Shown: positions 458 to 30,682, counted from the first letter of the stretch. The stretch: DNA of 64,000 nucleotides from a virus (IMGVR_UViG_3300037859_000002:32001-96000), one strand, 5' to 3'. Numbers and translations: made by a program. Notes: a model not told the origin generated them from the sequence alone.

Positions 458-532
458 CTCCACTGATCACGCGCCCCGTGTGGGCGCGAGGCACGACCCA
501 CCCGGATGGGGGTGGGCCGGCCTTTCGTGGAG
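458..532 (-). ncRNA. type II hammerhead ribozyme-like element, G3-C8 core variant
   Basis: minus strand: CTCCAC GAA A GGC[hairpin]GCC T C GCGCCC ACACG GGGCGC GTGATCA GTGGAG; three stems, CUC triplet, core GUGAUCA. Confidence 0.75.
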
Positions 533-533
533 C

Positions 534-1703
534 CTAGGCCTTGGCCATCAGGTCGCCCGCGCGGCGTTCGAAGGCCACGCGTTCGTCCTGATAAGGGATG
601 GTCCGCGCGTGCGCGGTCATGCCCTGCACGACGTCCCAGATAGACGTCATCGGGTGCCCCTCCTCGCGGAGAACGGTCTCGATGATGTCTTTGGTGGTCG
701 GCTTCGGCAGGCCGAGCTTCTTGTGCAGAAACTCGAAACGCTGATCATCGTCCTTGGCGACAACCGTTGCCTTGGCGTCGATGACCTTGCTGGTCACCGC
801 GTTCGCCGCGGTGTGGGCAAAGCTCTCGATCTGGGGCTGTACCTCGTGGATGAACCGGTCGGGTGCACCGCTCGTGTGACGGATAGTGATCGACTTGTGG
901 TTCTCGGTGCCCCAAAGGCAGCGGTTCTGACAGACGGCGCGCAGATACATCGTCTGGATGTTCAGCGCTCGGCTTCCGGTCTCCGAATTGGAGACGATGA
1001 TGCCCGGGAACAGCAGGTCCGGCTGTCCGTCGGGGAGTTTGCCGACCTCGATCGGGAACTGATCGCGGCACAGGAAGATGAAGACATCGCGGTCCGAGGC
1101 GTACAGTGTGGTCGTCGCCTTGGTGACATCGACGTTGGGGTTGTAGGTCATCCGGCCCCAGTCGATGACGCCCGGCACCTTCCAGCTTTCGTCGAGACGC
1201 TCGTTGATGGCGCGGGCCACATCCAGGTCGAGGATGCGGCCATAGCCCGGGCTGGTGGCGGCTCGCAGCTGATCCGGCCCGCCCGCCTGATCTTCCTGCC
1301 AGAAGAGCTTCAGCACCTCGGCCGGGCTTTTGACCAGGCCATGCTGAAGACAGAGCCCGGAAAGAAAGGCCGGGATCTTGCGCAGGTAGGCGGCGGGCGA
1401 CTGGGTCCAGGTGCAGAGCTGCCCGAAAGCCCAGTGCGTCATCTGCATCTGGGCTCCACCGTCACGCTCGAGCAGGAGCGTATGGTTGTCGTCCGGGTTG
1501 GCGCTGACGCGCAGCTTCTTCGACTCGAAGGTGTTGGTTCGCGACAGGTCGGTCCGGTCGTGGAGGCTCGAGATGAGCGCATCCATCGACAGGAATTTCT
1601 GGTCATCAGGTCGTGAGAACCATTGCTGGCTCACGCTGGTGTTCAGGCTGCCGCGGGAGGCGGTGACAGCACGTACCCCAACGAGTGTGGTGTCAGTGTT
1701 CAT
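534..1703 (-). CDS. DUF932-family protein
   Basis: motifs LYASDRDVFIFL and NSETGSRAL...YLRAVCQNRCLWG...IRHTSGA typical of DUF932; AAGGAG RBS before the ATG at 1703. Confidence 0.75.
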   Translation of the reverse strand: MNTDTTLVGVRAVTASRGSLNTSVSQQWFSRPDDQKFLSMDALISSLHDRTDLSRTNTFESKKLRVSANPDDNHTLLLERDGGAQMQMTHWAFGQLCTWTQSPAAYLRKIPAFLSGLCLQHGLVKSPAEVLKLFWQEDQAGGPDQLRAATSPGYGRILDLDVARAINERLDESWKVPGVIDWGRMTYNPNVDVTKATTTLYASDRDVFIFLCRDQFPIEVGKLPDGQPDLLFPGIIVSNSETGSRALNIQTMYLRAVCQNRCLWGTENHKSITIRHTSGAPDRFIHEVQPQIESFAHTAANAVTSKVIDAKATVVAKDDDQRFEFLHKKLGLPKPTTKDIIETVLREEGHPMTSIWDVVQGMTAHARTIPYQDERVAFERRAGDLMAKA

Positions 1704-1749
1704 CGGTAGCTCCTTGTTGGGTGCGGCGGGTGGCGCGCCCAGGGGTGAT

Positions 1750-1833
1750 CCCGCGGCGCCGCCCACACAACCATGTGGTTGTGGGGCGCGCGCTTCGGCC
1801 GCCCCCGGGGTTGGGGGCGCCTCGTCAGGCGGG
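1750..1833 (-). ncRNA. type I hammerhead-like element, G15.1-C16.1 variant
   Basis: CCCGC CTGACGA GGCGCCCCC..GGGGGCGGCC GAA GCGC[long hairpin]GCGC C GCGGG; the core TGA is the stop codon of the upstream gene. Confidence 0.6.
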
Positions 1834-2193
1834 TGGTGCGCTCCGCTTCAGGATCTTGTCGGCGTTCCGGAGGAAGTGCGTTTTGTTGTTCAAGAAGGGA
1901 GTGAACAGGTCCTCGCTCTGACTCTCGGTAAGGCCAAAGAACTTGGCCAGCCTGGGGTCATCGCATCCGTAGATGGACCGACCGTCAATCTTTGGGACCT
2001 TGGAAGGCCGGATAAGGGTCAGGCCCTCGGCTTGCATTTCGGGCGTAAGGCCCGCATGGCCGATGACACAGCCAACGGTGCCGCAGCCTCCTTCAACCCC
2101 GAAACGGTAGATCCAGGTGCTCATCCTGACCTGGTCTTCGGGTATGCCGTCGATCAGGTCGCGCACGAATTTCAGTCTCTCGTAGGGTGTCAT
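1825..2193 (-). CDS. small CG(T/S)xxCxxGH-motif protein, paralog 1
   Basis: MTPYERL...CGTVGCVIGHAG...PEMQAEGL; similar to ORFs at 3657, 16825 and 17828. Confidence 0.8.
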   Translation of the reverse strand: MTPYERLKFVRDLIDGIPEDQVRMSTWIYRFGVEGGCGTVGCVIGHAGLTPEMQAEGLTLIRPSKVPKIDGRSIYGCDDPRLAKFFGLTESQSEDLFTPFLNNKTHFLRNADKILKRSAPPA

Positions 2194-2203
2194 TTCGTGT
2201 TTC

Positions 2204-2254
2204 CCTTTCGCCGCTGCTGGCGGCTCATCAGCTCGCACGCGGTGTGCGAGAAGG
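2204..2254 (-). ncRNA. type III hammerhead ribozyme
   Basis: CCT T CTCGCAC ACCGC GTGCGAG CTGATGA GCCGC CAGCA GCGGC GAA AGG; canonical core, short stem III. Confidence 0.8.
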
Positions 2255-2277
2255 CCCGGGGGCGGTGCCCCGGGGGC

Positions 2278-2715
2278 TCAGTCTTCGGCTGTTAGCGGTC
2301 GGTCCGCGTCATTCCAGGCACTCAGAGCGCTCATGAAGGCCCCGTGGGTCTCCAGGGCCCTGCCCTCGGGCTGGTGGCGCATCTCGCTCGCACCGCTCGA
2401 GAATTCTTCGACCAGGTCCGCCGACCAGGCGGCCTCTGCGTCCAAGACGCTCTGGTAGAGCGGATGCCGCTCTTTCGGCGCTTCCGGTCTGGCGTATTCC
2501 TCGGCTTCGAGTTGCTTCGCGATGACGAGTGTCTGCGCGGGCGTAACCTCAGAGCAGAGGTATTCATCCAGCGCGGTCTGGGCCAAGAGGCACGCCAAGC
2601 TGAGTGGGCACCGGGTCTCCACCGATCCCGGCAGGGATGCCTGCACGAGTTGGAGTGCCCGCGTGGCGCGCGCGACCTGCAGGAGGTCGTTGATGTCAGG
2701 ATCCAGGTTGCTCAT
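2278..2715 (-). CDS. hypothetical protein
   Basis: 145-aa ORF with coding-like composition, coupled to the upstream ORF by ATGA overlap. Confidence 0.65.
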   Translation of the reverse strand: MSNLDPDINDLLQVARATRALQLVQASLPGSVETRCPLSLACLLAQTALDEYLCSEVTPAQTLVIAKQLEAEEYARPEAPKERHPLYQSVLDAEAAWSADLVEEFSSGASEMRHQPEGRALETHGAFMSALSAWNDADRPLTAED

Positions 2716-2927
2716 TGAGGGAGCCCCAGATTCGCTTTGTCGACGAAGATGCGTACTTTCGGATCCAGCCGATACACATGCACGTCGAGCATGCCATCGT
2801 CCTGGCGGCGGAAACTGATCAGGCCGCCAAGGCCGGTCTTGCGATCGGTGAACTCAACGATGCGCTCTCTCGACTTGTCGGTGAAACTATCGGCCTGACA
2901 CTTCGTCAATACGAGAGGTCTTGGCAT
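2712..2927 (-). CDS. hypothetical protein
   Basis: 71-aa ORF starting just after hammerhead 2932-2992. Confidence 0.7.
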   Translation of the reverse strand: MPRPLVLTKCQADSFTDKSRERIVEFTDRKTGLGGLISFRRQDDGMLDVHVYRLDPKVRIFVDKANLGLPQ

Positions 2928-2931
2928 GGTC

Positions 2932-2992
2932 TTGCCTTTCGCGCGCCCGGTCTGGGGCGCTCATCAGCGCACATTTATATGTGCGAAGGCAA
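2932..2992 (-). ncRNA. type III hammerhead ribozyme with a CACAT-N4-ATGTG palindrome as stem I
   Basis: TTGCCT T CGCACAT ATAA ATGTGCG CTGATGA GCGC..GCGC GAA AGGCAA; canonical core, 6-bp stem III. Confidence 0.85.
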
Positions 2993-3024
2993 TGCCCCCA
3001 GGGCAAGGTCCCCGGGGGCATGGA

Positions 3025-3582
3025 TCAGCGGGCCGGGATCTTGCCCTTGTGGGCCTCGACCCGTCGGCGGATCGTTGACGCAAGCTCCGCGTACTCGCGG
3101 TTCACGGTCGCGGTCGCGTCGTTCAGCACCTGGTCGTCGGTCGGGCACTGGATGCTCGCCGTCGCCGGGTTCTGCTCGAGATACTGCGCCAGGGACACCC
3201 GCTGCTCATAGGCCATGCAGGTCATGCTGGCCCAGATGAAGAGCCGGCCCAGCCCCTCAGGGAGCGGGGCCTCCAAGCCTGGTGCATACAGGGCGCAGCA
3301 GATCTCCGCGGGGGCGCAGATCCAGGGCCGGAACCCGTAAACGATTTCCAGCCGCTGCGCGCGCACCTGTTTCGGGATGAAGGGCGGAATGTCCTTCTCC
3401 CAGCCGCCGCCGGGCTGGATGATCACGGGCCCGGTGACGTAGTGCTGATCGGCCTTGCTGAGGCCGGCGATGCCCATGGCTTCGTTGAGCTGCAACAGGA
3501 AGGCGGCGCTCATGCCCATGTGGGCCATGGCGCTCTGCAGTCGCAGGACGTCCATCGACATCGGCGTCTGCTGTGGTTTCAT
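3025..3582 (-). CDS. hypothetical protein
   Basis: ORF MKPQQTPMSM...; GAGGA RBS formed by the hammerhead core. Confidence 0.7.
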   Translation of the reverse strand: MKPQQTPMSMDVLRLQSAMAHMGMSAAFLLQLNEAMGIAGLSKADQHYVTGPVIIQPGGGWEKDIPPFIPKQVRAQRLEIVYGFRPWICAPAEICCALYAPGLEAPLPEGLGRLFIWASMTCMAYEQRVSLAQYLEQNPATASIQCPTDDQVLNDATATVNREYAELASTIRRRVEAHKGKIPAR

Positions 3583-3587
3583 CGGAG

Positions 3588-3659
3588 TGATCCTCATCAG
3601 CGCCGGCGGATCGCCGGCCGAGCTCGCGGCCGCACGCGGCGGCCGGAGCTTTCGGATCA
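3588..3659 (-). ncRNA. type II hammerhead ribozyme
   Basis: TGATCC GAA A GCTC[hairpin]GAGC T C G GCCGGCG ATC CGCCGGC G CTGATGA GGATCA; G.G mismatch at 1.1/2.1. Confidence 0.8.
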
Positions 3660-4031
3660 GTCTTCAACAGGCTCTTCGAGCAGTCGGTCCATCAGAGCGA
3701 GCTGCCGGGCCTTGGTCAGTTCGGAGGTGCGGTCATTTTCGATGTAGAACAAGGTCCGTGCCGCGGCCTCACTGATGCCAAAGAATACGGCCAGGGCCGT
3801 GTCCGTAGCGGTCCACCCATGAAGGGTAAGGAGCCGCTGCGGGGACAGCTTCAGTCCTTCGGCTTGAAGGACCGGATCCATGCCGCCGTGGCCGGCGATG
3901 CAAGCCACGGTGCCGCAAACGGATTGCCACTTGTTCATGTCGATCAACATGGCCGGCGTCTCGGCAATGATCTCGCGGAGGCGGGCGAGACGCTGCCGCG
4001 GCCTCAGGCTTGGAATGGTTCCACTTCCCAT
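3657..4031 (-). CDS. small CG(T/S)xxCxxGH-motif protein, paralog 2
   Basis: PRQRLARLREII...CGTVACIAGHGGMDPVLQAEGL. Confidence 0.8.
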   Translation of the reverse strand: MGSGTIPSLRPRQRLARLREIIAETPAMLIDMNKWQSVCGTVACIAGHGGMDPVLQAEGLKLSPQRLLTLHGWTATDTALAVFFGISEAAARTLFYIENDRTSELTKARQLALMDRLLEEPVED

Positions 4032-4035
4032 CGGG

Positions 4036-4107
4036 TGATCCTCTTCATGGGGATGATTCCCCGACCGTTCCCCCTGAGTCAAAGCCCAGGGGGCCGGTTT
4101 CGGATCA
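4036..4107 (-). ncRNA. type II hammerhead-like element, C3A variant
   Basis: TGATCC GAA A CCG[hairpin]CGG T C GGGGA ATCA TCCCC ATGAAGA GGATCA. Confidence 0.7.
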
Positions 4108-4596
4108 GTAGCCATTGCCCACTTCGGTGACGTGGGCGTGCCGCACGTCGTTGGGGCTGAGCTCGACCGCCGCGCGGTCGCGCAGGTGGTCGAGCATATC
4201 GGCCCAGACGCGGCTGGACGGATCGTCCATGCCGGCCTCTGCCAGGTCGGCGGCCTTGACCCGGTCGGGAGCCTCGATCGTGGTGGTGAAGCGCAGGACC
4301 GTGGTGAGCGTGACATCGATGGTCACCTCGTGCCTGGTCTTTGTCGTCCCCGCCACGATCTGCGCGCACAGTGCCTCGAAATCGAGGCGGTCGAGCATCT
4401 CGTCCCCAGCCTGGTAGGCGCGAACGATGAGGACCCTGTTGTCGGACAGCAGGGTCGTCGGGACCGCGCCGGTCTTGGCCCTGAGATAGGCCGCGACCGG
4501 CGCCTCGGTTCCGTCGCTCATGCGCGCCAGGTAGGTCTTGAGGTCCATCGCCGACGGGCAGTTGCTCTCGTCGACGACGGTGACGTCGTAGTTCAT
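4105..4596 (-). CDS. hypothetical protein
   Basis: 163-aa ORF with GAGGAG RBS. Confidence 0.75.
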   Translation of the reverse strand: MNYDVTVVDESNCPSAMDLKTYLARMSDGTEAPVAAYLRAKTGAVPTTLLSDNRVLIVRAYQAGDEMLDRLDFEALCAQIVAGTTKTRHEVTIDVTLTTVLRFTTTIEAPDRVKAADLAEAGMDDPSSRVWADMLDHLRDRAAVELSPNDVRHAHVTEVGNGY

Positions 4597-4600
4597 GGGA

Positions 4601-4669
4601 TGAGCTCCTCTGGTCCGTTATTGGACGAGGCGGGCGCCGCCCATCGGGCGACGGCGCGCCTTTCGCTCA
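4601..4669 (-). ncRNA. type II hammerhead-like element, U4A variant
   Basis: TGAGC GAA A GGCG[hairpin]CGCC T C GTCC AATAAC GGAC CAGAGGA GCTCA. Confidence 0.7.
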
Positions 4670-5371
4670 CTCCTCTCGACCATGGTGCAGCTCGTGCTGC
4701 AGCAGGTCGCGATGGTGCAGGTACTCCGAGTGGTGGGCCTCGAGGATTGCGTCGCTGGCGACGAGCCTGATGTTGTTGCCCAGGCCGGCGCGCTGATCCA
4801 GCAGCAGCTGCTGCAGGCAGGCGAGCAGGTCGAAATCGACGTGCTCGCTCTGCTTCGACGCCCGGGACCAGGCGGTCATGCGCGCCTTTGCCTCCTCGGC
4901 GGAGGAGGCGCGCACAAACACCGGGTAGGTGAACTCGGGGAGCTGCAGGGTGGCGGTGACCGCGTAGAGGCGTTCACCCCCTCTGAGCTGGCCGAGCAGG
5001 CCCTCGGTGGCCCTGTTTTGCGGCACGGCCTCGAAGGGCCGGTCGCCGTGCTCGGGGTGATCGTCGATCGCGCTCATGTTTGCGATCGAGGCGATCGGGT
5101 CGGGGTTGTCGTCGTCGCCTTCCCTGGATGTCCAGTCGGTACCCCGGAGCATACGCCAAACCTGGCGGAAGCTGGGGTCTGCCATGGTGTCTGGCGCGAC
5201 GCTCATTTGTCGGCCGTCATGGGTGGCGACGAGGACCGGGTCCCCGGTGGCGGTGGCGTTGATCACCGCGAGCTTCTCGCGCGCGGTGGCCGCCAGTGCG
5301 ATCGCCTTGTCGAGATCGACGTACTCGAAATCATCGGGCCCGTCCTCGAAGGCGATGGTGCAGAGTTCCAT
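4667..5371 (-). CDS. hypothetical protein (acidic)
   Basis: 234-aa ORF with GAGGA RBS. Confidence 0.75.
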   Translation of the reverse strand: MELCTIAFEDGPDDFEYVDLDKAIALAATAREKLAVINATATGDPVLVATHDGRQMSVAPDTMADPSFRQVWRMLRGTDWTSREGDDDNPDPIASIANMSAIDDHPEHGDRPFEAVPQNRATEGLLGQLRGGERLYAVTATLQLPEFTYPVFVRASSAEEAKARMTAWSRASKQSEHVDFDLLACLQQLLLDQRAGLGNNIRLVASDAILEAHHSEYLHHRDLLQHELHHGREE

Positions 5372-5376
5372 GCGGT

Positions 5377-5444
5377 CCTCTTGTCAATGAGCGGGATTGC
5401 TCATGAGCGCCAGGCCCCGCATTGGGGGCCTGGGGCTTTCGAGG
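5377..5444 (-). ncRNA. type II hammerhead-like element, U3-A8 variant
   Basis: CCTC GAA A GC[hairpin]GC T C A TGAGC AATCCC GCTCA TTGACAA GAGG; same AATCCC loop and extra base as element 17194-17262. Confidence 0.65.
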
Positions 5445-5858
5445 GTCAGCGTGGCTTGGGCGCCTTGCGTGGCTGGCGCCTGGGCGCCGAGCGACGAAGG
5501 AGCGGGGGCCAGCCCGGGCTCATGGTCCGGGATGGCTGGGCGAGCCGCGTGGCCAGCCGGATGGGCTGGCTCAGTCGCAGCGTCGGTGGTCGGTCTGGGT
5601 CCATGGGTGACCTCATCGGCGGCGCGGGATTGCGCCGGAGCGCCTGGGCGCTTTCGGTCACATCTCTGATATGGGGATTGGCCCGCTCGGGTGCAACCGC
5701 GATTCCATGGTTGTGGAATCAGTGGTGGAGGCGTAGGGTCTGCGTCTCGCCCAAAGAGGCGACGGCCCCGGTTTGAACGCCCGGGGCCGTCCATATCTCG
5801 GGCCGGAGCGACATCCGGCGGCGAGCGCGCTGGCCCAGTAGACGCTGGGCTTGGCCCA

Positions 5859-5887
5859 TACATATTGCGTGTGGACCGGGCGTGCAA
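5859..5887 (-). promoter_or_regulatory. putative sigma70-type promoter for leftward cluster 1
   Basis: TTGCAC-N17-TATGTA on the minus strand in an AT-richer divergent gap. Confidence 0.5.
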
Positions 5888-5920
5888 GTGAAAATCTGGT
5901 ATCAGGCCGCGTCTACGGCT

Positions 5921-5934
5921 CACATTTAGATGTG
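5921..5934. promoter_or_regulatory. operator-like palindrome CACAT-N4-ATGTG
   Basis: CACATTTAGATGTG next to the RBS of the initiator gene; recurs across the window. Confidence 0.75.
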
Positions 5935-5944
5935 AGGTGCTGCC

Positions 5945-6991
5945 GTGAACGTCTCGTACATCAATTTCGTCGCCACGGGCTGGGCCTGGGCGCAGCCGAC
6001 CGCGAATGCTGGGGCCAAGCTGCTGCTGCTGGCCCTGGCCGGCCACGCTGACCCGTGGGGGAGCGCCCGCCCGGCGCTGCCCCGGTTGCAGGCGCTGACC
6101 GGGCTGTCGCGCTCCGGTCTGTTCAAGGCCATGGCCGAACTCGAAACCCTGGGCCTGATCAAGAAGCGCTCGGGCGGCGGGGTCGTCAATGAATACATTC
6201 TCAAGTGGGATGGGGAGCCCGGCCCGTTCGTGGTGCTGACCGAGCCTGCGGCACCCGTCCCCCCAGTGGACGGGGGGGTCCGCCCAGTGGACGGGCCTCC
6301 CCAGAGTGAACGGGTCCACTCGGTGGACTCACCCCGTCCACTCGGTGGACTCCACCCGTCCACTCGGTGGACTCAACCCGTCCACTCGGTGGACTCCACC
6401 CGTCCACCCAGTGCACCCGAAGATATTAGAGAAGAGATAAGGGAAGAGATAAGGGAAGAGATTAGGGAAGAGAACAACAGCGCGCGTGCGCGCGCGACCA
6501 CTCTCGCGGGGGCGCCCGAACCCGCCGCCGGTCCCGCGGTGACACCCCCTGCCGCTGAGGAGGTCTGCGACGCGACCAGTACCCCGGAAAAACCGCGAAG
6601 GTCAAAGATTCCTAGTCGCGTGCCTTCGGGCGACCTGCCGGCCGAATGGCTCAGCGCAGCCAACGCCGGTCGCGCCAAGCTCGGCCTCCCCGAAATCGGC
6701 GCCCGCGAGGCCATCGCCCGATGGCTCAACTTCCAGGCCTTCTGGGAGGGCGTCACCGGCCCCAAGGGCCTGAAGGTCGACTGGCGTCGCTGCTGGCTCG
6801 AGGGTGCGCGCAACCCCAAGGCCGACCACCACTACGAGGATTTCGCCCAGCCCGACGCTGAGGAGCCGCCGGCGCCGCGGACCGACCACCAGGCGGACGC
6901 CGAGTTCCTGACCGATCCTGAATTCGGGGCCCGCAACCGCGCCAAGCTCGCGCTGCTCGAATCCCTGGTCGCCGGGAGGTCCCGCCTGTGA
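5945..6991 (+). CDS. phage replication initiator (N-terminal HTH, internal ori)
   Basis: N-terminal AKLLLLALAGHAD...PALPRLQALTGLSRSGL HTH; internal iterons; C-terminal FQAFW...DWRRCW; directly upstream of the primase-helicase. Confidence 0.8.
   Translation: MNVSYINFVATGWAWAQPTANAGAKLLLLALAGHADPWGSARPALPRLQALTGLSRSGLFKAMAELETLGLIKKRSGGGVVNEYILKWDGEPGPFVVLTEPAAPVPPVDGGVRPVDGPPQSERVHSVDSPRPLGGLHPSTRWTQPVHSVDSTRPPSAPEDIREEIREEIREEIREENNSARARATTLAGAPEPAAGPAVTPPAAEEVCDATSTPEKPRRSKIPSRVPSGDLPAEWLSAANAGRAKLGLPEIGAREAIARWLNFQAFWEGVTGPKGLKVDWRRCWLEGARNPKADHHYEDFAQPDAEEPPAPRTDHQADAEFLTDPEFGARNRAKLALLESLVAGRSRL
6314..6476 (+). repeat. origin of replication: four 22-bp iterons (GTCCACTCGGTGGACTC core) plus a purine-rich 12-bp repeat tract
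   Basis: repeats at 6314, 6336, 6358, 6380 and a partial copy at 6402; then GAAGAGAT(A/T)AGG-type repeats; lambda-O-like arrangement. Confidence 0.75.
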
Positions 6992-8853
6992 CGGCACTCG
7001 ACCTGCACGCGGCCCTCGATCGCGAGGGCATCCGGATCCCCGCGACCACGCCGGGCAAGACCTTCGATGCGCTGTGCCCCCGCTGCAACGGCGGTCGCGC
7101 CCGGGAACGGAACTTCCGGGTCACGATCGACGACGACGGCAAGGGCGCCGTCTGGCTCTGCAACCGGGCGAACAACTGCGGTTGGACCGACAGCGTCCGC
7201 ACCGGCCCCCGGGATCCGAGTGCGCCGCGCGCGCGCAAGGACCGGGCCCCGCCGGTAAAGCCCGAACCGATCCCGCCCGAGCAGCAGGATCGGCGCCTGC
7301 CGCTCTACGCCTGGTGGGCCAGGCGCCGGATCTCGGCCGAAACCGTGGACGCCCTGGGCGTGTTCACGACGTCCATGCGGTTGCCGCGTTTCGATGCCGA
7401 GGGGCGCCCCGTGCTGGATGACCAGGGCAAGCCCGTCTGGCAGGACCAGGAGGCCATGGTGTTCCCCTACGTGCACCACGGCGAGGTCGTGAACCACAAA
7501 TACCGCTGGTCGCCCAAGAAATTCCGCCAGGATCGACACAGCCGGCGCACGCTCTTCAACGCCGACAGCCTCGAGGCCGACGATCTGGGGATCATCGTCG
7601 AGGGTGAGGCCGATGTGCTGGCCCTGTGGGAGGCCGGGTACCGTCAGGTCGTCTCCCTGCCCGATGGGGCGCCCCCCCGGGTCAGCGACACCTATGACCC
7701 GGAGAATGACGATGACGACCGGTATGAGGCGCTGCGGACCGAGGAGCGCTTCCAGCGTCTGAAGCGCATCGTCATCGCCGTCGATACCGACGACGCGGGC
7801 CGGGCGCACGCCGAGGAGATCGCGCGCCGCATGGGCAAGGAGCGCTGCTGGCTCGTGGAGTGGCCCCGCAAGGACGGGGGCGACGTGCTGCGCGAGCTTG
7901 GGCCCGAGGCCGTGCGTGCCGCGGTCGAGGGCGCGCGACCCTATCCGATGCCGGGCATCCTCGATGGGCGGGCCCTGGGCGAGCGCGTGGCCGCCGAGCG
8001 CCAGGGCCAGCGCGATACCGGCTATGCCTGCGGGATCGACGATCTGGATGGCCTGTTCCGGTTCTCGCGCGAGGAGGGCACCTTCGCGGTCGTCACGGGC
8101 GTGCCCGGCTACGGCAAGACCGTGACCACGATCGCCTACTCCGTGTTGTTGGCCGAGCAGGCTGATGCGCGGGGCGAGCCCTGGCACACGCTGATCTGCT
8201 CGCCCGAGATGCGGGCCGTCGATCTGGTGAAGAACATCGTCGCGGCCAAGGCGCGCCAGCCCTTCTACGATGGCAAGAGCGGCCCGGGCATTGCCCCCGA
8301 GGACCTGCCGGCGCTGATGGACTGGGTCAACGCGCACTACACGTTCCTGGAGCCTGACGATGCGGCCGATGATCCGACGCTCGACTGGATCATCGAGTGT
8401 GTGCGCCTGTCGCATCGCCGGAACCGGACCAGGCTGGCGATCATCGATCCCTGGAACGAGATCGAGATCGGCTACCCGCCCGACAGGAGGATGACCAACG
8501 ACGAGTGGATTGCGAAGCAGTTGCAGCGGATCCGCAAGCTCGTGGTCGAGCTCGCCTGTTCGGTCGTGGTGGTCGCCCACCCGAAGAAGATCGAGCGCGA
8601 GAAGAAGGGGGGTAAGCTCAGGGTGCCGACCGGCTACGACATCGCCTACTCGGCGGGCTGGAACAACAAGCCCCAACTGGGGATCACCGTGCACCGGGCG
8701 GAGCACGACAAGACCGACGAGCTGGAGTTTCACGTCTGGAAGGCCAGGCAGGGTCATCTGTCGAAGCGCGACAAGGTGGTCGTGCGGTTCAGCCCGGTGA
8801 CCAAGCGGTTGCTGCCCAAGATGACTCCGGTCGCCTATGGCGCGGTCGGATAA
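6988..8853 (+). CDS. primase-helicase (T7 gp4/Twinkle-like: Zn finger, TOPRIM, SF4 helicase)
   Basis: CPRC...CNRANNC; VEGEADVLAL; DTDDAG; Walker A GVPGYGKT; IIDPWN; VAHPKK. Confidence 0.9.
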   Translation: MTALDLHAALDREGIRIPATTPGKTFDALCPRCNGGRARERNFRVTIDDDGKGAVWLCNRANNCGWTDSVRTGPRDPSAPRARKDRAPPVKPEPIPPEQQDRRLPLYAWWARRRISAETVDALGVFTTSMRLPRFDAEGRPVLDDQGKPVWQDQEAMVFPYVHHGEVVNHKYRWSPKKFRQDRHSRRTLFNADSLEADDLGIIVEGEADVLALWEAGYRQVVSLPDGAPPRVSDTYDPENDDDDRYEALRTEERFQRLKRIVIAVDTDDAGRAHAEEIARRMGKERCWLVEWPRKDGGDVLRELGPEAVRAAVEGARPYPMPGILDGRALGERVAAERQGQRDTGYACGIDDLDGLFRFSREEGTFAVVTGVPGYGKTVTTIAYSVLLAEQADARGEPWHTLICSPEMRAVDLVKNIVAAKARQPFYDGKSGPGIAPEDLPALMDWVNAHYTFLEPDDAADDPTLDWIIECVRLSHRRNRTRLAIIDPWNEIEIGYPPDRRMTNDEWIAKQLQRIRKLVVELACSVVVVAHPKKIEREKKGGKLRVPTGYDIAYSAGWNNKPQLGITVHRAEHDKTDELEFHVWKARQGHLSKRDKVVVRFSPVTKRLLPKMTPVAYGAVG

Positions 8854-8912
8854 CACACACAGATGTCTTTTCTGGCCTTGGCGCCACATTCAAGTGTGTC
8901 TATCATGCGCAG

Positions 8913-16827: not shown

Positions 16828-17184
16828 GGCGGGTCGGTCAGGATGGTAGTCGAGCGCGCGCTTCAGCCGTGCGACCAGCGTACGTGGCTTGCTCTCGAGG
16901 CCGAACAGCGACTCGGACACCTGCTTTGTGATGCCAAAGAACACGGGTCCGATGGACTCGCTGCGGACTTCCTGTTCCCCGACAAAGGGGAACAACATGC
17001 GCCCGTCGTCGAACAGGTGGCGCAGCGTCAGTCCCTCGTTCTGCATCTCGGGCGTCATGGCCGCGTGGCCGATGATGCACCCGGGGCTGCCACAGAAGTC
17101 GGTCCAGCGGGTCATCACCAGCTGATCGGGCGGAATGCTCGCCGCCAGGTCGGTGACGAAGGCCAGCCTCTCGTAGGGTGTCAT
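16825..17184 (-). CDS. small CG(T/S)xxCxxGH-motif protein, paralog 3
   Basis: MTPYERLAFV...CGSPGCIIGHAAMTPEMQNEGL. Confidence 0.8.
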   Translation of the reverse strand: MTPYERLAFVTDLAASIPPDQLVMTRWTDFCGSPGCIIGHAAMTPEMQNEGLTLRHLFDDGRMLFPFVGEQEVRSESIGPVFFGITKQVSESLFGLESKPRTLVARLKRALDYHPDRPA

Positions 17185-17193
17185 GCGCGTGGT

Positions 17194-17262
17194 TCCTCTT
17201 CAGGCCCGCGGGATTGCGGGCAGAGCGGCCCCGCCGCGGTGCGACGGGGTGCTTTCGGATCA
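17194..17262 (-). ncRNA. type II hammerhead ribozyme
   Basis: TGATCC GAA A GC[hairpin]GC T C T GCCCGC AATCCC GCGGGC CTGAAGA GGA. Confidence 0.8.
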
Positions 17263-17463
17263 GTCTTCGGGAGGCGCCCTCACCACGGGATACGGGTAGC
17301 CCAGCGCGGTCATGACCCGTTCGTGGATCTCGCACGCGTGGTCCCGGTCTTCCTCGTTCCAGGTGGGGCGGCCCTGCCGGCGGCGCCGGCGGTGGGCCGC
17401 GTCGGTGCCCGCCGCGTGGGCGAGCCCGAGGGCCTCCTGGTAGCTGTCAGCGCGGATGGGCAT
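17260..17463 (-). CDS. small hypothetical protein
   Basis: YQEALGLAHAAGTDAAHRRRRRQGRPTWNEEDRDHAC. Confidence 0.65.
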   Translation of the reverse strand: MPIRADSYQEALGLAHAAGTDAAHRRRRRQGRPTWNEEDRDHACEIHERVMTALGYPYPVVRAPPED

Positions 17464-17752
17464 CGACGCCCTCGCCGTTGACGGCGTGGCCCACCAGGGT
17501 GCCGTAGCGGCGCCTGGTCGCGTGGGCCATCATGGCCAGGGCTTCGCGCACGCGGCGGGCATCGGCCGCGATCGACAGGAGCTCCGTTTCGGGCACCTGT
17601 TCGACCCCCTCGGGAAAGCGTTGCTGGATCTGCTCGGCGATGTCCTGCACGAGCCTGCAGCAGGCTTTCATCTGGGTGGCCACGGCGTTGCCCGAGGGCA
17701 TGGAGTCGAGCGCGAGCGTGAGCCAGTCGTCGGGCAGTTGGTGTTGAGGCAT
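17447..17752 (-). CDS. hypothetical protein (helical)
   Basis: 101-aa ORF after hammerhead 17758-17830. Confidence 0.7.
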   Translation of the reverse strand: MPQHQLPDDWLTLALDSMPSGNAVATQMKACCRLVQDIAEQIQQRFPEGVEQVPETELLSIAADARRVREALAMMAHATRRRYGTLVGHAVNGEGVDAHPR

Positions 17753-17757
17753 CTGGT

Positions 17758-17830
17758 TGATCCTCTTCAGTGCCGGCGATGGTGCCGGCCGAGCGTCCCC
17801 GCCGCGATGCGACGGGGCGCTTTCGGATCA
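17758..17830 (-). ncRNA. type II hammerhead ribozyme
   Basis: TGATCC GAA A GCG[hairpin]CGC T C G GCCGGC ACCATC GCCGGC A CTGAAGA GGATCA. Confidence 0.8.
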
Positions 17831-18208
17831 GGTTGTGACCGGCTCTTTCAAAAGCCGGTCGATCAGGGCCAGCTGCCGGTCCTTGGTCTGGTGCCGGGGC
17901 CGGGCATCATCGGAATAGAACAGCACGGTCCCGGCGTCGTTGCTGATGCCGAAGAACTCGGACAGGCCGATGTTGCCGACGGGGTTGCCGTTGACGGTCG
18001 GCGAAGGCCAGGGGCCATCGGTCAGCTCCAGGCCCTCGGCCTGGAGGACCGGATCCTGGGCACCGTGGCCCGCGATGCACGCGGTGGTGCCGCACTGTGA
18101 AACCCAGGCGCTCATGTGGATTGCTTGGGCCGGTGTGTTGGCGATGACCTTGCGCAGGCGGGCCAGCCGCTGTCGCGGCGTCAGGCCAACGGGTTCCGGG
18201 TCTGTCAT
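17828..18208 (-). CDS. small CG(T/S)xxCxxGH-motif protein, paralog 4
   Basis: TPRQRLARLRKVI...CGTTACIAGHGAQDPVLQAEGL...RQLALIDRLLKEPV. Confidence 0.8.
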   Translation of the reverse strand: MTDPEPVGLTPRQRLARLRKVIANTPAQAIHMSAWVSQCGTTACIAGHGAQDPVLQAEGLELTDGPWPSPTVNGNPVGNIGLSEFFGISNDAGTVLFYSDDARPRHQTKDRQLALIDRLLKEPVTT

Positions 18209-18214
18209 TGGTTT

Positions 18215-18284
18215 GCTCCTCTTCAGGCCCGCGGGATTGCGGGCGACCGCCCCGCCCCGGTGTGGGGCGGGGGGTTTCGTCAGC
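18215..18284 (-). ncRNA. type II hammerhead ribozyme (canonical, GUC)
   Basis: GCTGAC GAA A CC[hairpin]GG T C GCCCGC AATCCC GCGGGC CTGAAGA GGAGC. Confidence 0.8.
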
Positions 18285-18459
18285 GCGTCGTGGCCGTTTG
18301 CTGGGGCGCCATGGTGCGGACCAGTCGCTGGCGCAGGGCCTCGACCCTGTTCCAGGCCGTCCAGTCGGTGGCCTGGCTCTGGGTCGCCACCTGCTGACCG
18401 TAACTGGTCAGCGCCGTGATCAGCGTCAGCAGCTCGTCCTCGTCGAGGGCGATGTTCAT
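18280..18459 (-). CDS. small hypothetical protein
   Basis: MNIALDEDELL...; ATGA-coupled to the upstream ORF. Confidence 0.65.
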   Translation of the reverse strand: MNIALDEDELLTLITALTSYGQQVATQSQATDWTAWNRVEALRQRLVRTMAPQQTATTR

Positions 18460-18842
18460 GCGCGGGGCGCCGCCAGGTAGCGTGCGATCCGAACGGCCGA
18501 CTGCTCGTCCAGCCAGTCCAGGAGCTGGGCCTTCATCAGGTCCGCCACCGGGCCATCGTTGAGTTCGGGACGCTGCTCGCGCAGGCTTTCGGCCAAGCGG
18601 CGCCACGAGCTGGGCTGCAGGGTCAGGCCCTGCTCAGCGAGCGCGGCGCGAATGTCCGCGGTGCAAAGCAGGACGTGGCCCAGCCGGACCGCGAGTTCCT
18701 CGAGCAGGGCCCGGCCCTCCTCGATGGTGGGCTCGCGACCGAAGGTCGCGCACCAGATGCGCGCGCAGATTTCGGCGATGTCGGCCGCCCGATCGCGGAG
18801 CGTGCGCTCGGGCGCGGCCTCGAAGACGGATTGTTCCTCCAT
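18456..18842 (-). CDS. hypothetical protein
   Basis: MEEQSVFE...; GAGGA RBS. Confidence 0.7.
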   Translation of the reverse strand: MEEQSVFEAAPERTLRDRAADIAEICARIWCATFGREPTIEEGRALLEELAVRLGHVLLCTADIRAALAEQGLTLQPSSWRRLAESLREQRPELNDGPVADLMKAQLLDWLDEQSAVRIARYLAAPRA

Positions 18843-18854
18843 CGGAGTGGGTCC

Positions 18855-18919
18855 TCTCGTTTCGCGCCCACGAACCGGCGGGCGCTCGTCGGCGCCTCTC
18901 ACATGAGAGGCGAACGAGA
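18855..18919 (-). ncRNA. type III hammerhead-like element, U4C variant
   Basis: TCTCGT T CGCCTCTCA TG TGAGAGGCG CCGACGA GCGCCCG..TGGGCGC GAA ACGAGA. Confidence 0.75.
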
Positions 18920-18949
18920 TACACTTAAATGTGGTGAGCCGGGAGTCAA
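18920..18949 (-). promoter_or_regulatory. putative promoter (TTGACT -35) with operator-like CACATTTAAGTGTA
   Basis: directly downstream of a terminator and upstream of hammerhead 18855-18919. Confidence 0.55.
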
Positions 18950-18953
18950 ATGG

Positions 18954-18988
18954 AAAGGCCCCCCACCCGGAAAAGGGTAGGGGGCCTT
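18954..18988 (-). terminator. rho-independent terminator
   Basis: AAGGCCCCCTACCC TTTTCC GGGTGGGGGGCC TTT. Confidence 0.6.
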
Positions 18989-18999
18989 GCGCGCGAGGG

Positions 19000-19209
19000 T
19001 CAGGCGCGGCGCATCTGGCGCAGACCCTCGCGGGTCGACCTGGCGCCGCCGCAGATGGCCCGATGGGCCACCGCGGCTGCGGCTCTGGTGCGCCGAAGCA
19101 TCTCCTGCTCGTCGAGCTTGATCTCGCCGGTCAGGCTGTCCTGCAGGTCCTGCAGGGTATCGCGGGCCGCGGCCAGCGCATCGCGCACATAATCGGGCTG
19201 CTTGGGCAT
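19000..19209 (-). CDS. small hypothetical protein
   Basis: MPKQPDYVRDALAAARDTL...; AGGAG RBS. Confidence 0.65.
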   Translation of the reverse strand: MPKQPDYVRDALAAARDTLQDLQDSLTGEIKLDEQEMLRRTRAAAAVAHRAICGGARSTREGLRQMRRA

Positions 19210-19227
19210 GGTATGTGCTCCTGGCCC

Positions 19228-19328
19228 CGGCTGCCTCTTCGGCACAGGATGGGGGCCCACATCGCTGTGGATGCACGCCGCGGCTCCTTCCTCGCGGGAG
19301 GGGCGCGCGCGCGCATTTCGATCAGCCG
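19228..19328 (-). ncRNA. type II hammerhead-like element, U4C variant
   Basis: CGGCTGATC GAA A TGCGCGC[..]GCGTGCA T C CACAG[..]CTGTG CCGAAGA GGCAGCCG. Confidence 0.65.
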
Positions 19329-19561
19329 CGCTCGGTGCGCGCGGTCCGGCTCGGATCATCCGGATCTGCGGCTTCGAAGGCGCGGTGGTCATAGGTCGTG
19401 GTCTCGCCCTGCTCGAGGTCCCAGTCGACGCCAAACTCATCATCGGCGGCGATCCTGACCGCCTCTTCGACGGTGCGGGCCATGACGATGCCCGTGTGAC
19501 AGAGACACTGGTCGACATAGCGGTGGACCACGAATTCTCGCTCCGGTGGGTCGGCGCTCAT
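19322..19561 (-). CDS. small hypothetical protein
   Basis: ...VMARTVEEAVRIA... motif; GGAGG RBS. Confidence 0.7.
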   Translation of the reverse strand: MSADPPEREFVVHRYVDQCLCHTGIVMARTVEEAVRIAADDEFGVDWDLEQGETTTYDHRAFEAADPDDPSRTARTERG

Positions 19562-19573
19562 GCGCGCGTTCCT

Positions 19574-19629
19574 CCCTTTCGCCGGCGGCTGGCCGGCTCG
19601 TCAGCCCCCACCAGGTGGTGGGGAAAGGG
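19574..19629 (-). ncRNA. type III hammerhead ribozyme
   Basis: CCCT T TCCCCACCA CC TGGTGGGGG CTGACGA GCCGGC CAGCC GCCGGC GAA AGGG. Confidence 0.85.
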
Positions 19630-19653
19630 GCCGCCCCCCGCAGGGGGCGGTCG

Positions 19654-19896
19654 TCAGTCCCGTCGGTCGATCCAGTAGCGCGGCACCCGATGATCGGGTG
19701 GGAAGCCGAAGCTCCCATCCTGCTCGAGGGTGACCACGATGGTCTCGGGGGTCTCGATCGCGACGGTGTCGACCACGACGAGCTCGAACTGGAATGTCGT
19801 GTTCGTGCTGTCGGCGTCGGCGTAGCGGTCGCCCGCGAGGTCGATGACCGACCCCGGTGTGAGGTCGGCCACCCGAACCATTTCGGGCGCGATCAT
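19654..19896 (-). CDS. small beta-rich hypothetical protein
   Basis: MIAPEMVRVADLTPGSVIDL...GSFGFPPDHRV. Confidence 0.65.
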   Translation of the reverse strand: MIAPEMVRVADLTPGSVIDLAGDRYADADSTNTTFQFELVVVDTVAIETPETIVVTLEQDGSFGFPPDHRVPRYWIDRRD

Positions 19897-20153
19897 CCTG
19901 TGCGATCCCATCCTCCGGGATGGCCAGGACGTGGGGTGATCATCGTCACCCTGGGGCGTCGGCGCCGCCACTCGTGCAGCGCCAGCAGCCCGTAGAAGGT
20001 CGTGGCCGCGGCGCCTGTCGTCAGCGCCGCGGCCCACATGATCTGCTGCACCGTCGGGTCGTCCTCGAAGATGAGGAACACGCCGGTCGCGGCAAAGATC
20101 ACGCCGGCGACTCCGCTGATGCCCAGCAGGGCAAAGCCGAGAAGTCGGTACAT
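19893..20153 (-). CDS. small two-TM membrane protein
   Basis: two hydrophobic helices followed by RRRR. Confidence 0.7.
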   Translation of the reverse strand: MYRLLGFALLGISGVAGVIFAATGVFLIFEDDPTVQQIMWAAALTTGAAATTFYGLLALHEWRRRRPRVTMITPRPGHPGGWDRTG

Positions 20154-20161
20154 GGGTCGTT

Positions 20162-20219
20162 CCCTTTCGCCGGCATGCTGGCCGGCTCATCAGTCCGCCC
20201 CATCAGGGAGCGGAAAGGG
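20162..20219 (-). ncRNA. type III hammerhead ribozyme
   Basis: CCCT T TCCGC T CCC TGAT GGG GCGGA CTGATGA GCCGGC CAGCAT GCCGGC GAA AGGG. Confidence 0.85.
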
Positions 20220-20269
20220 CGACGCGCCCGCCCCAGCCTTGGGGCCAGAGCGGGCGCGCGTCGTTGGTT

Positions 20270-20497
20270 TCAGGCCGCCAGGGCTTCGTCAGAGGGCGGG
20301 GTCGCCCTGCTGGACTTGCGCCACTCGTAGACCGCACCTGCCACGCAGGTGACGGCCATCAGGGCGTTGACCGCGATGTTGAGGCCCGGTACCAACATGG
20401 TGCCCGCGCGCATCATCGGGAGCCAGGCAATGGCCAGGCCGGTGAAGCCCACCGCCGAAGCGGCGTAGATGCGGGCGTTCATTTTGTTGCTGGTCAT
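20270..20497 (-). CDS. small two-TM membrane protein
   Basis: MTSNKMNARIYAASAVGFTGLAIAWL... Confidence 0.7.
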   Translation of the reverse strand: MTSNKMNARIYAASAVGFTGLAIAWLPMMRAGTMLVPGLNIAVNALMAVTCVAGAVYEWRKSSRATPPSDEALAA

Positions 20498-20506
20498 GAT
20501 GTGTTC

Positions 20507-20561
20507 CCCTTTCGCCGCAGACTGGCGGCTCATCAGGCCCCACACGCTGTGGGGTCGAGGG
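20507..20561 (-). ncRNA. type III hammerhead ribozyme
   Basis: CCCT C GACCCCACA GCG TGTGGGGC CTGATGA GCCGC CAGTCT GCGGC GAA AGGG; near-copy of element 15921-15976. Confidence 0.85.
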
Positions 20562-20597
20562 TGGGTGCCCCCACACAGGGGGCACCCAACAGGAAGA

Positions 20598-20825
20598 TCA
20601 CGCGGCCTGCTCCAGGGCCTTGTCCTGGGGCTTGCCCAGGTAGCGGGCCGCCACGTTGGCGCCCACGGCGACAACGACGCCCCCGACCGCGATGGCGCCC
20701 AAAACGGGCGCCGTCATCGGAACCAGCGGCAGCAGCAGCACCGCCAACCGGTAGCCCGCCAGACCAGAGGTCAGCAGGCCCGCGGTCTCGGCCACGGCAG
20801 CGATCTTCTTCGTGTTGAAGGTCAT
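20598..20825 (-). CDS. small two-TM membrane protein
   Basis: MTFNTKKIAAVAETAGLL...; AGGAG RBS. Confidence 0.7.
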   Translation of the reverse strand: MTFNTKKIAAVAETAGLLTSGLAGYRLAVLLLPLVPMTAPVLGAIAVGGVVVAVGANVAARYLGKPQDKALEQAA

Positions 20826-20837
20826 CGGATCGATCTC

Positions 20838-20914
20838 CTGAGTGATGATGCGTTCGCCCCTTGCCAAAGGGGCCTCGTCAGCCGGGCTCATTGGCTACCC
20901 GGTCGCACACTCAG
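20838..20914 (-). ncRNA. type III hammerhead-like element, C15.1-G16.1 variant
   Basis: CTGAGTG TGCG A CCGGGT..GCCCGG CTGACGA G GCCCCTT TGGC AAGGGGC GAA CGCA TCAT CACTCAG. Confidence 0.6.
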
Positions 20915-21013
20915 AATCGTCGTTGACATACCGTATGTGGTGATTCTCCACATATATTCAACCACTTAGGCGCAGAAAAGCTCCGAAAATGCACCGAAAA
21001 TGGTCGATCCCAC

Positions 21014-21856
21014 ATGCCTAAGGGCCACCCGCCCTCCATCTGGGCCAGCATCCGCGCCGACTATGTCGCAGGCCTGGGCACGACCAACGACCTGGCCCGA
21101 ACCTATGGCGTCGACGCCTCGGGCATCCGCAAGCGCCGCATCCTCGAGGCCTGGCCCGAACCGGGCGAACGCATCGTAGACACCGCCCTCTACAGGACCA
21201 AATCCAAGCAGGGTGTGAAACCCGCAGATCAAGCCCCGCGCTCGCCAAAGCAGCAGGCCGGAACACATTTCACACCCGAGGGTGTGAAACCCATGGAACA
21301 CCCTGGAACACCCCCCCGGACGGGCGTGCTCCAGAAGCCCCGAACGCGAGAGCAGGCGCTGCTCATGGCCGCCGAACGCGAGTTCGTCCGAGACCTCGCC
21401 ATCATCGACGCCATCGCCCCCAAGGCGGCAGCCCTCATCGAAGACCACCTGGCCCGGACCGCCCAGCTCAAGCAGCACTTCACCCGGCTCCACACCCTCC
21501 TGGGCAACCTCATCCACGACGACCCCCAGAAGCGCGCGACCGCACAGGACGTGCTCGGCCAGGTGCCGCCCGAAACGGTGCTGAACACGATGCTCAACCT
21601 GGCCTCGTCGATCCAGCGGCTCGAGCGCCAGTCGCTGCAGCTCGACATGGGGCCCCGGCGCCTCGAGCTCACCGGCAAGGACGGGGCGCCGCTGCCCGCC
21701 ACCCAGGTCAACGTCGGTGTGGGCGTGAAGCTCGACGCCAAGACCATGACGACCGAGCAGCTGGCCGCCCTGGGCTCGGTCCTGGAGGCCGTGGACGGCC
21801 AGGCGCCGCGCACGGCGCTGAAGCGTCCGCCCCAGGGGCCGATGATTGAGGGCTGA
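21014..21856 (+). CDS. putative terminase small subunit
   Basis: N-terminal WASIRADYVAG...DLARTYGV...IRKR HTH; C-terminal RLELTGKDGAPL...MTTEQLAAL typical of TerS; upstream of TerL. Confidence 0.65.
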   Translation: MPKGHPPSIWASIRADYVAGLGTTNDLARTYGVDASGIRKRRILEAWPEPGERIVDTALYRTKSKQGVKPADQAPRSPKQQAGTHFTPEGVKPMEHPGTPPRTGVLQKPRTREQALLMAAEREFVRDLAIIDAIAPKAAALIEDHLARTAQLKQHFTRLHTLLGNLIHDDPQKRATAQDVLGQVPPETVLNTMLNLASSIQRLERQSLQLDMGPRRLELTGKDGAPLPATQVNVGVGVKLDAKTMTTEQLAALGSVLEAVDGQAPRTALKRPPQGPMIEG

Positions 21857-30508: not shown

Positions 30509-30682
30509 ATGGAAGAGCGTCTGGCGCCCAACCCGTATATCGGTTTTCAGGGTCCCCACTGGTCCGACATCTACCGACCCGACAGCGCGCTGACCTCGGC
30601 GGCCCTCGCGGCCGCGGCGCCGCAGCTGATGCTCGAGGTCGAGCGCCTGAAGCGCGAACTCCAGGCATGCCTCGCGAAGTGA
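30509..30682 (+). CDS. small hypothetical protein
   Basis: GAGGA RBS; C-terminal coiled coil. Confidence 0.5.
   Translation: MEERLAPNPYIGFQGPHWSDIYRPDSALTSAALAAAAPQLMLEVERLKRELQACLAK

Follow-up and report, generated by a model that had tools for sequence, protein, structure and literature searches.

Clusters of hammerhead ribozymes that flank single genes have been described in prophages, where they were proposed to process transcripts into single-gene mRNAs, and tandem arrangements of this kind, among them a triple set, were cleaved in vitro and one of them in vivo (Perreault et al. 2011, PLoS Comput Biol, PMC3088659; here and below we draw on passages of that paper). Another viral case is HHphage of the haloviruses HF1 and HF2, in which an RNA 5' end has been mapped close to the cleavage site (PMC3088659). 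A 2019 review called the role of bacterial and phage hammerheads largely elusive and repeated the idea of polycistronic processing (PMC6765202). Here we analyse an array of hammerhead elements in IMGVR_UViG_3300037859_000002, the 111-kb record of an uncultivated phage (111,211 bases). The window is the whole stretch of 64,000 nt that was analysed, bases 32001-96000 of the record, and coordinates are those of the window unless marked "genome". We found 33 elements genome-wide, all on the minus strand, 24 of them inside the window and the other nine at genome 107004-110755; by topology 19 are type II, 12 type III and two type I. They are probably genuine hammerhead elements that cut the transcripts of their gene blocks, without the help of a protein, into mRNAs of one or two genes. 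A first-pass annotation of the window had taken phage hammerheads to occur as one or a few copies per genome; this does not hold, since multiple hammerheads flanking single prophage genes were published in 2011 (PMC3088659).

The record itself is a tailed phage of temperate type. It is classed as a virus and encodes portal, terminase, MuF, primase-helicase, integrase, ERF and SSB proteins; the nearest cultured portal, 44% identical, belongs to Brevundimonas phages. Among sequencing runs, the DNA turned up in a single one, an algae metagenome that is its probable source, and in no RNA run.

Detection of the elements

Read on the minus strand, the gaps separating the small genes contain CUGANGAG...CGAAA cores. 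To find them systematically we used a canonical descriptor that demands the core CUGANGA plus GAA, A15.1-U16.1, an H17 other than G and three helices (scored by a small alignment with one mismatch or bulge allowed). Over both strands of the whole 111-kb genome it gave 17 minus-strand matches, 16 of them in gaps and one spurious, and none on the plus strand; the chance level was a mean of 0.2 in 40 dinucleotide shuffles. The strand and shuffle comparison proposed in the first-pass annotation thus came out in favour of the elements. When folded without constraints, most of the 16 canonical gap copies, and six of the variant copies, adopt the three-way junction as the minimum free energy (MFE) structure. 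A type I match of 168 nt at 51586-51753 was rejected: it lies inside a late gene and is an expected false positive.

The variant copies were sought with a relaxed descriptor, which was restricted to gaps because genome-wide use gives ~82 hits per shuffle, and each gap was compared with 100 dinucleotide shuffles of its own sequence. Every one of the 11 variants in the window beats 100/100 shuffles. A relaxed match at genome 10726-10874 was set aside as a false positive. Two covariance models were then seeded from the array, R1 with six type II copies and R2 with only two type III copies. With E < 1e-4, R1 recovers nine copies outside its seed, each of them on the minus strand, and R2 recovers nine beyond its two seeds. 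We set aside as false an R1 match on the plus strand (30572-30644) and an R2 match at 38599-38663, which is GC-rich and lacks the core.

Helix conservation is pronounced in both families. In the type II alignment 91.7% of cells are paired vs about 40% when partners are slid, with double changes in 11/21 pairs; in the type III alignment 97.6% are paired vs about 45%, with double changes in 17/19 pairs, and in both the observed values were reached by 0/500 shuffles. Both alignments were fitted to the models' structures, which favours pairing, and the margins are still large. This agrees with the initial remark that stem sequences differ while pairing is kept. Within type II copies it is stems I and III that covary; the open stem II never does.

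At Rfam gathering thresholds the window yields two tRNAs and nothing else. In E-value mode, the Rfam comparison suggested at the outset produced three type II matches on the minus strand (16436-16508, 18210-18283 and 3584-3657), all of them below threshold. Each of the 23 left ends listed in the first-pass annotation corresponds, within a few bases, to a hammerhead-like minus-strand fold with the three-way junction; the list omitted the copy at 5607-5661, and nine more lie to the right of the window. All three topologies named there were found as well, with the qualification that both type I copies are non-canonical.

Placement in the gene blocks

The elements are confined to three minus-strand blocks of small genes, at genome 32057-37700, 46100-52900 and 106443 to the contig end. 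In these blocks, for which genes were called with a codon-usage model trained on long open reading frames (ORFs), every between-gene gap of at least 25 nt contains an element. The five or six junctions that lack one are all 4- or 17-nt overlaps, as had been observed initially for genes overlapping their upstream neighbour. No element was found in the 39 other gaps (10.4 kb) of the genome. The element-free regions include a 30-kb minus-strand block (ERF, SSB, YqaJ and HerA-like genes) and the 53-kb late operon, and genome-wide searches with the canonical descriptor, with R1 and R2 and in gaps found none there, which is in line with the reported absence from the late and replication operons. The block genes are nearly all orphans (30 were searched against Pfam and ten against PHROGs); the others encode a DUF932 protein, a RusA-like or clamp-like protein, and products with weak DUF3846 and DUF6332 matches.

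Signals within the middle block suggest several transcription units. An AT-rich promoter-like island (20920-20990) precedes the first element, the block is divided by a terminator-like hairpin with a U-rich tail (18977-18959, minus strand) and a further island (18897-18932), and another island (14411-14456) lies ahead of the type I copy at 14141. The block is closed by a bidirectional intrinsic-terminator-like hairpin, read directly from the sequence at 13985-14030. A strict sigma-70 promoter scan of 13800-21300 gave no match. Internal promoter-like islands together with terminator-like sites imply more than two transcripts, so the two long early transcripts first envisaged give way to three blocks with internal punctuation; the "early" timing of the blocks is an assumption.

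Two further observations concern these transcription units. Downstream of the type I element at 14141, ~150 nt (13990-14147, minus strand) with an ORF of at most 44 codons lead to the intrinsic terminator, and this segment may be a ribozyme-trimmed small RNA. In addition, a 14-nt palindrome, CACAT-N4-ATGTG, occurs in 10 copies vs about 0.3 in shuffles (2970, 5921, 13320, 23319, 30698, 48610 and 58138, and genome 7525, 14932 and 22629), mostly in AT-rich intergenic islands preceding operons, and probably serves as an operator or promoter element.

Anatomy of the junction modules

The two major types are embedded in their junctions in distinct, regular ways. In type II copies the 5' arm of stem II contains the UGA stop codon of the upstream gene, placed 0-2 nt ahead of C11.1-GAAA (16/17 copies with a called upstream gene). 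The start codon of the next gene follows the 3' arm of stem II by a few nt, with GAGGA 4-10 nt before the AUG, and the best match to the anti-Shine-Dalgarno sequence, usually this GAGGA, overlaps the purine-rich end of the core and the 3' arm of stem II. In type III copies the stop codon lies about 12-55 nt upstream, and a separate GC-rich hairpin stands between stop codon and ribozyme in all ten copies that follow a gene; here Shine-Dalgarno-like purines are carried by the GAAAGGG of stem III. Over the whole array, most elements have a start codon within 14 nt of their 3' end, and in most cases the best anti-Shine-Dalgarno match overlaps the element.

These arrangements bear on the ends that cleavage would create. 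Upstream of the predicted cut, the last 45 nt fold in 31/33 cases into a hairpin (-12 to -36 kcal/mol) that leaves a tail of 1-7 nt. The elements at 18855 and 20843 are the exceptions: each comes after an AT-rich promoter-like island, so that its upstream product would be a short leader. On the downstream product a hairpin starts within 2 nt of the predicted 5' end in 33/33. For type II, stem III would become the 3'-terminal hairpin of the upstream mRNA and stem I the 5'-terminal hairpin of the downstream mRNA; for type III, the extra upstream hairpin would serve as the 3' cap and the GAAAGGG of stem III as the Shine-Dalgarno site. Types II and III thus reach the same product ends by different means, and we take this as the best indirect evidence that selection sees the cleavage products.

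The loops show some regularities of their own: a CAG motif recurs in loop II of the type III copies, and in some type II copies the sequence of loop I complements the start-codon region. CAU-type tetramers in this loop I can pair with the downstream start-codon region over 4-6 bp at 17758-17830 and 4036-4107, and likewise at genome 107004, 107426, 108011 and 110085. This complementarity could be the loop I/3'-tail pseudoknot of the type II family, although it is not statistically secure, because the copies are paralogs.

Core quality and individual copies

The canonical core is present in 20/33 copies in the genome and in 13/24 in the window, and the remaining 13 deviate at one or two positions. 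Twelve of the 20 also have standard pairs at 1.1-2.1, 10.1-11.1 and 15.1-16.1. As three of these twelve have a stem II of about one pair, nine textbook copies are left, and 11 of the 20 fall short of that standard through a mismatch at 1.1-2.1 or 10.1-11.1 or a very short stem II. Across the array, G10.1-C11.1 is retained in 32/33 and A15.1-U16.1 in 30/33.

The 13 window sites with canonical core and three helices include seven textbook copies. These are the type III elements at 2204-2254 (31 bits with R2), 2928-2997 (whose stem I is a copy of the CACAT-N4-ATGTG palindrome), 15921-15976 (R2, 34.9 bits), 19574-19629 (found by the descriptor), 20162-20219 (R2, 51.3 bits) and 20507-20561 (R2, 29.7 bits), and the type II element at 16440-16510, which is the best Rfam match (RF02276, 31 bits, E = 0.009). 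The other canonical-core copies are mostly type II: 3585-3662 (G-G at 1.1-2.1; 69.8 bits with R1, 21.6 bits with RF02276), 16757-16827 (G-G at 1.1-2.1; descriptor and R1), 17194-17259 (3-bp stem II; 65.3 bits with R1 without being in the seed), 17758-17830 (G-A at 1.1-2.1; descriptor and R1) and 18219-18279 (stem II of about one pair; RF02276 22.7 bits, R1 31.8 bits). At 15316-15378 stands a type III copy with G-A at 1.1-2.1, found by the descriptor.

Among the variants, the type II copy at 458-532 carries a G3/C8 swap of the C3-G8 pair (GUGAUCA), with stem scores of 9/8/17 and a three-way junction as MFE fold (z = -4.5). C3-G8 is known to covary naturally to U3-A8 (PMC3088659), and judged from the sequence the swap follows the same logic with a different pair. 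Both type I-like copies have G15.1-C16.1: the one at 1750-1833 (z = -5.2) takes the upstream UGA stop into its core CUGA, and the one at 14141-14250 (z = -4.0) has a long stem II and sits after a promoter-like island and before the short terminal RNA. Substitutions at C3 or U4 mark four further type II copies, each with 0/100 shuffles as good: C3A at 4036-4107 (AUGAAGA; one of three paralogous copies, R1 40.3 bits), U4A at 4598-4673 (CAGAGGA), U4C at 5607-5661 (CCGAUGA; R1 31.8 bits) and U4C at 19228-19328 (CCGAAGA), which has long stems and folds as the junction at MFE. A degenerate type II copy at 5368-5454 combines C3U with a 2-nt insertion after A6 and scores 18.7 bits with R1; its loop I is common to other copies. 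Type III variants are found at 14459-14514, after the last gene of the block (C3U, UUGAAGA; R2 25.2 bits, 0/100 shuffles), and at 18855-18919, directly after a promoter-like island (U4C, CCGACGA; R2 46 bits, z = -3.8). The weakest case is the type III-like element at 20843-20913, the first after the island at 20920-20990, with C15.1-G16.1 and H17 = A: it beats all its shuffles (0/100), yet its z is only -1.6 and R2 misses it. A twister-sister match (RF02681) at 5394-5466, with 22.5 bits vs a cut-off of 34 and two stems missing, was rejected because the stretch aligns as a degenerate type II hammerhead with the loop I of other copies.

Some copies are evidently related. One hammerhead occurs twice, at 16755-16830 and genome 109623-109698, 100% identical over 76 nt and flanked by unrelated genes. 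A cassette consisting of an element, a gene of the CGxxGCxxGH family and a second element is present three times at about 70% identity (3579-4108, 17750-18225 and genome 109616-110154). Gene cassettes may thus recombine at the elements.

Proposed function and alternatives

In the scheme that we favour, the elements would have multiplied by duplication and diverged inside the genome of one temperate-type tailed phage, and the polycistronic transcripts of the three blocks would be cut at each non-overlapping junction into mRNAs of one or two genes. The segmentation of mRNA proposed in the first-pass annotation therefore stands as far as hammerheads at junctions and predicted hairpins at product ends (31/33 and 33/33) are concerned, and falls for its scheme of two transcripts. 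We infer from the sequence that cleavage takes place in vivo, that hairpins and 5'-OH ends stabilise the products and that translation is affected; avoidance of RNase E decay by the 5'-OH ends is plausible. The regularities of the product-end hairpins lend indirect support to the mRNA-processing model.

Several observations weigh against this reading. None of the 33 elements reaches the Rfam gathering score (the best has 31 bits vs 37 for RF02276), which is a matter of curation rather than a biological criterion. For the type III and type I copies there is no Rfam match at E up to 10, RF00008 and RF00163 included. Among the 20 copies with a canonical core, eight have a non-pair beside it (G-G, G-A or U-C at 1.1-2.1, A-C at 10.1-11.1), three further ones have a stem II of about one pair, and 13/33 copies carry a substitution at C3, U4 or 15.1-16.1 or an insertion. 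Published mutagenesis links core changes to slowed or abolished cleavage, core-adjacent mismatches are likewise associated with reduced activity, the natural core variants of phages are slow at best and in some cases inactive, and active ribozymes may have a stem II of only one or two pairs (PMC3088659). Perreault et al., whose filter required standard pairs beside the core, would have put such copies aside pending assay (PMC3088659). Cleavage by the 13 core variants is probably slow or absent, and with eight core-adjacent mismatches in addition, the activity of all 23 elements first listed cannot be assumed. A search for a tertiary contact between stem I and stem II gave nothing beyond chance once paralogs were discounted. 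DNA-pattern scans of viral and genome contig collections found no close relatives. Finally, partition-function folding gave an unpaired probability for the Shine-Dalgarno sequence of 0.48 in the precursor vs 0.53 in the 3' product, a shift so small that a strong unmasking switch is unsupported.

The unevenness of the cores admits other readings. The elements might be mostly decayed or selfish repeats, descended from hammerheads, that spread with gene cassettes through duplication and recombination and now act mainly as structured intergenic spacers providing hairpins and Shine-Dalgarno sites, with a minority of them still cleaving. Such a history would fit copies that are 76-100% identical between differing flanking genes, the threefold element-gene-element cassette, the core changes in 13/33, the persistence of three identical C3A copies and the eight additional copies with core-adjacent mismatches. 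However, decay would hardly leave a core far more conserved than the freely covarying stems, with G10.1-C11.1 in 32/33 and A15.1-U16.1 in 30/33; the G3/C8 swap is compensated and not a random match, and placement is exact at every junction. We therefore regard repeat spread as an unlikely account of the array. Alternatively, the same variation might be functional: cleavage rates would differ from junction to junction through the 13 core variants and the 11 variants in junction pairs or stem II, and termination at the UGA in stem II would gate the folding of each ribozyme. Such a graded programme would set how about 35 accessory genes compare in stability, timing and translation, with no need for a protein factor, and the three promoter-proximal elements, all of them core variants, would act as trimmers of 5' leaders. 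We consider this elaboration quite unlikely.

Two further mechanisms were weighed. In a translation-coupled switch the main role would be to gate translation of the downstream gene, with the open helix hiding the Shine-Dalgarno sequence until cleavage, or a ribosome terminating at the UGA, frees the site. It draws on the fact that stop codon and Shine-Dalgarno sequence form the two arms of type II stem II, which unlike stems I and III never covaries, and on the complementarity of loop I to the start-codon region in several copies. Yet the predicted accessibility of the Shine-Dalgarno site is about 0.5 whether or not cleavage has taken place, the helix has only 3-6 bp, the loop I complementarity is within chance once paralogs are discounted, and the overlap of stop and Shine-Dalgarno sequence could be plain compaction because the hammerhead core is purine-rich; a switch of this kind seems to us improbable. 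Cutting might also be followed by rejoining, with a hybrid hammerhead assembled from the ends of fragments that have like elements on both sides and either the reverse reaction or the phage's RtcB making circular, exonuclease-resistant mRNAs. RtcB joins exactly the end types that hammerheads generate. A phage-type RtcB gene is present at genome 1-1407, and the open-helix arms share a consensus that permits a hybrid helix in 11/19 same-type neighbour pairs. On the other hand, neighbours are of mixed type in 11/30 pairs and 8/19 same-type pairs are incompatible, no hammerhead array is present in the 75 kb searched of the RtcB-bearing Bradyrhizobium phage BDU-MI-1, the RtcB gene adjoins two tRNA genes, its usual tRNA-repair context, and circles were sought by Perreault et al. 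with none found (PMC3088659). Mixed or incompatible neighbours and an RtcB-bearing relative with no array leave the circular-mRNA idea unsupported, and we hold it to be extremely improbable. Altogether, protein-independent cutting of the block transcripts at their junctions remains the reading that we prefer.

Relatives and other features of the genome

Searches for related loci covered several sources. A protein-based search with a block paralog and the DUF932 protein found none, and a homologue search returned only the genome's own paralogs. R1 gave no match over 151 alphaproteobacterial genomes, a result that is uninformative because only about 31 candidates were scored per genome. Among relatives by portal protein (at most 49% identity), the five records searched had no RF02276 match above cut-off, and 41 kb of Brevundimonas phage Polewnik contain no canonical hammerhead. 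Two kinds of match were discarded: a looser DNA pattern gave 22 single matches in genome and metagenome contigs, which the descriptor identified as chance matches, and the sole match in 75 kb of Bradyrhizobium phage BDU-MI-1 is weak, lies inside a primase/helicase gene and is taken as spurious.

The RtcB gene (genome 1-1407, plus strand) is cut by the contig start; its product matches PF01139 with 105 bits and is 64% identical to the RtcB of BDU-MI-1. Downstream lie tRNA-Arg(TCG), tRNA-Arg(ACG) and a tyrosine integrase gene. No sign of coupling between RtcB and the hammerheads was found. A gene for a TROVE (Ro60-like) protein with a VWA domain (genome 5904-7277, minus strand) adjoins a tRNA-like gene (genome 7984-8059, minus strand) with anticodon CUA, which ARAGORN calls tRNA-Pyl and which scores 40.9 bits with the Rfam tRNA model; the two could be a Ro/Y-RNA-like pair, or the latter an amber suppressor tRNA. 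Three arrays of 36-nt periodic repeats (9500-9637, 9840-10076 and 11172-11561, with 3.8, 4.2 and 9.8 copies) flank a gene at 10230-11186, whose 318-aa product has no Pfam match. Upstream of the primase-helicase operon, the divergent region contains tandem repeats at 6314-6407 (22 nt, 4.3 copies) and 6419-6473 (12 nt, 4.6 copies) that look like iterons or operators.

Comparison with known systems

Among Rfam families the nearest is RF02276 (Hammerhead_II, clan CL00010), with which the array shares the core, the three-way junction and the open stem II, and to which the copy at 16440 aligns end to end. It differs in that all copies score at most 31 bits vs 37 and in showing no evident loop I/3'-tail pseudoknot, a feature typical of type II. 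Neither RF00008 (Hammerhead_3) nor RF00163 (Hammerhead_1) detects any of the type III or type I copies. HHphage of HF1 and HF2 is more distant: it occurs once, in an archaeal virus, and its unusual core needs high Mg2+ (PMC3088659).

Processing of polycistronic messages at intergenic sites has well-known counterparts. In phage T7 the host RNase III cuts the early polycistronic mRNA between genes, leaving monocistronic mRNAs with a protective 3' hairpin, and RiboJ is a synthetic ribozyme insulator that standardises the 5' end of a message by removing upstream context. The cutter in T7 is thus a host protein enzyme and RiboJ is engineered, whereas the cutter proposed here is the RNA itself at each junction.

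The closest parallel remains the prophage clusters of Perreault et al., which flank single genes or gene blocks of small size. These too mix hammerhead types, are oriented with the genes and lie in intergenic gaps of varying phage accessory genes; they share the temperate context (marked here by the integrase), the proposed cutting of mRNA and natural core variants (PMC3088659). The clusters tested there were sets of three on fragments of about 2 kb, whereas here 33 elements fill every non-overlapping junction, and the grammar of stop codon, hairpin and Shine-Dalgarno sequence and the G3/C8 swap are particular to the present array with respect to the passages of that paper drawn on here (PMC3088659). 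Since prophage clusters with the same processing model were described in 2011, the array extends a known system and is not a new kind; it reveals no new mechanism and no new RNA class. What it offers is a natural test set, with 33 copies in three topologies, a fixed grammar and a series of core variants in a single transcriptional context. It is the largest hammerhead array known to us and a very regular one, with an unusually explicit module grammar.

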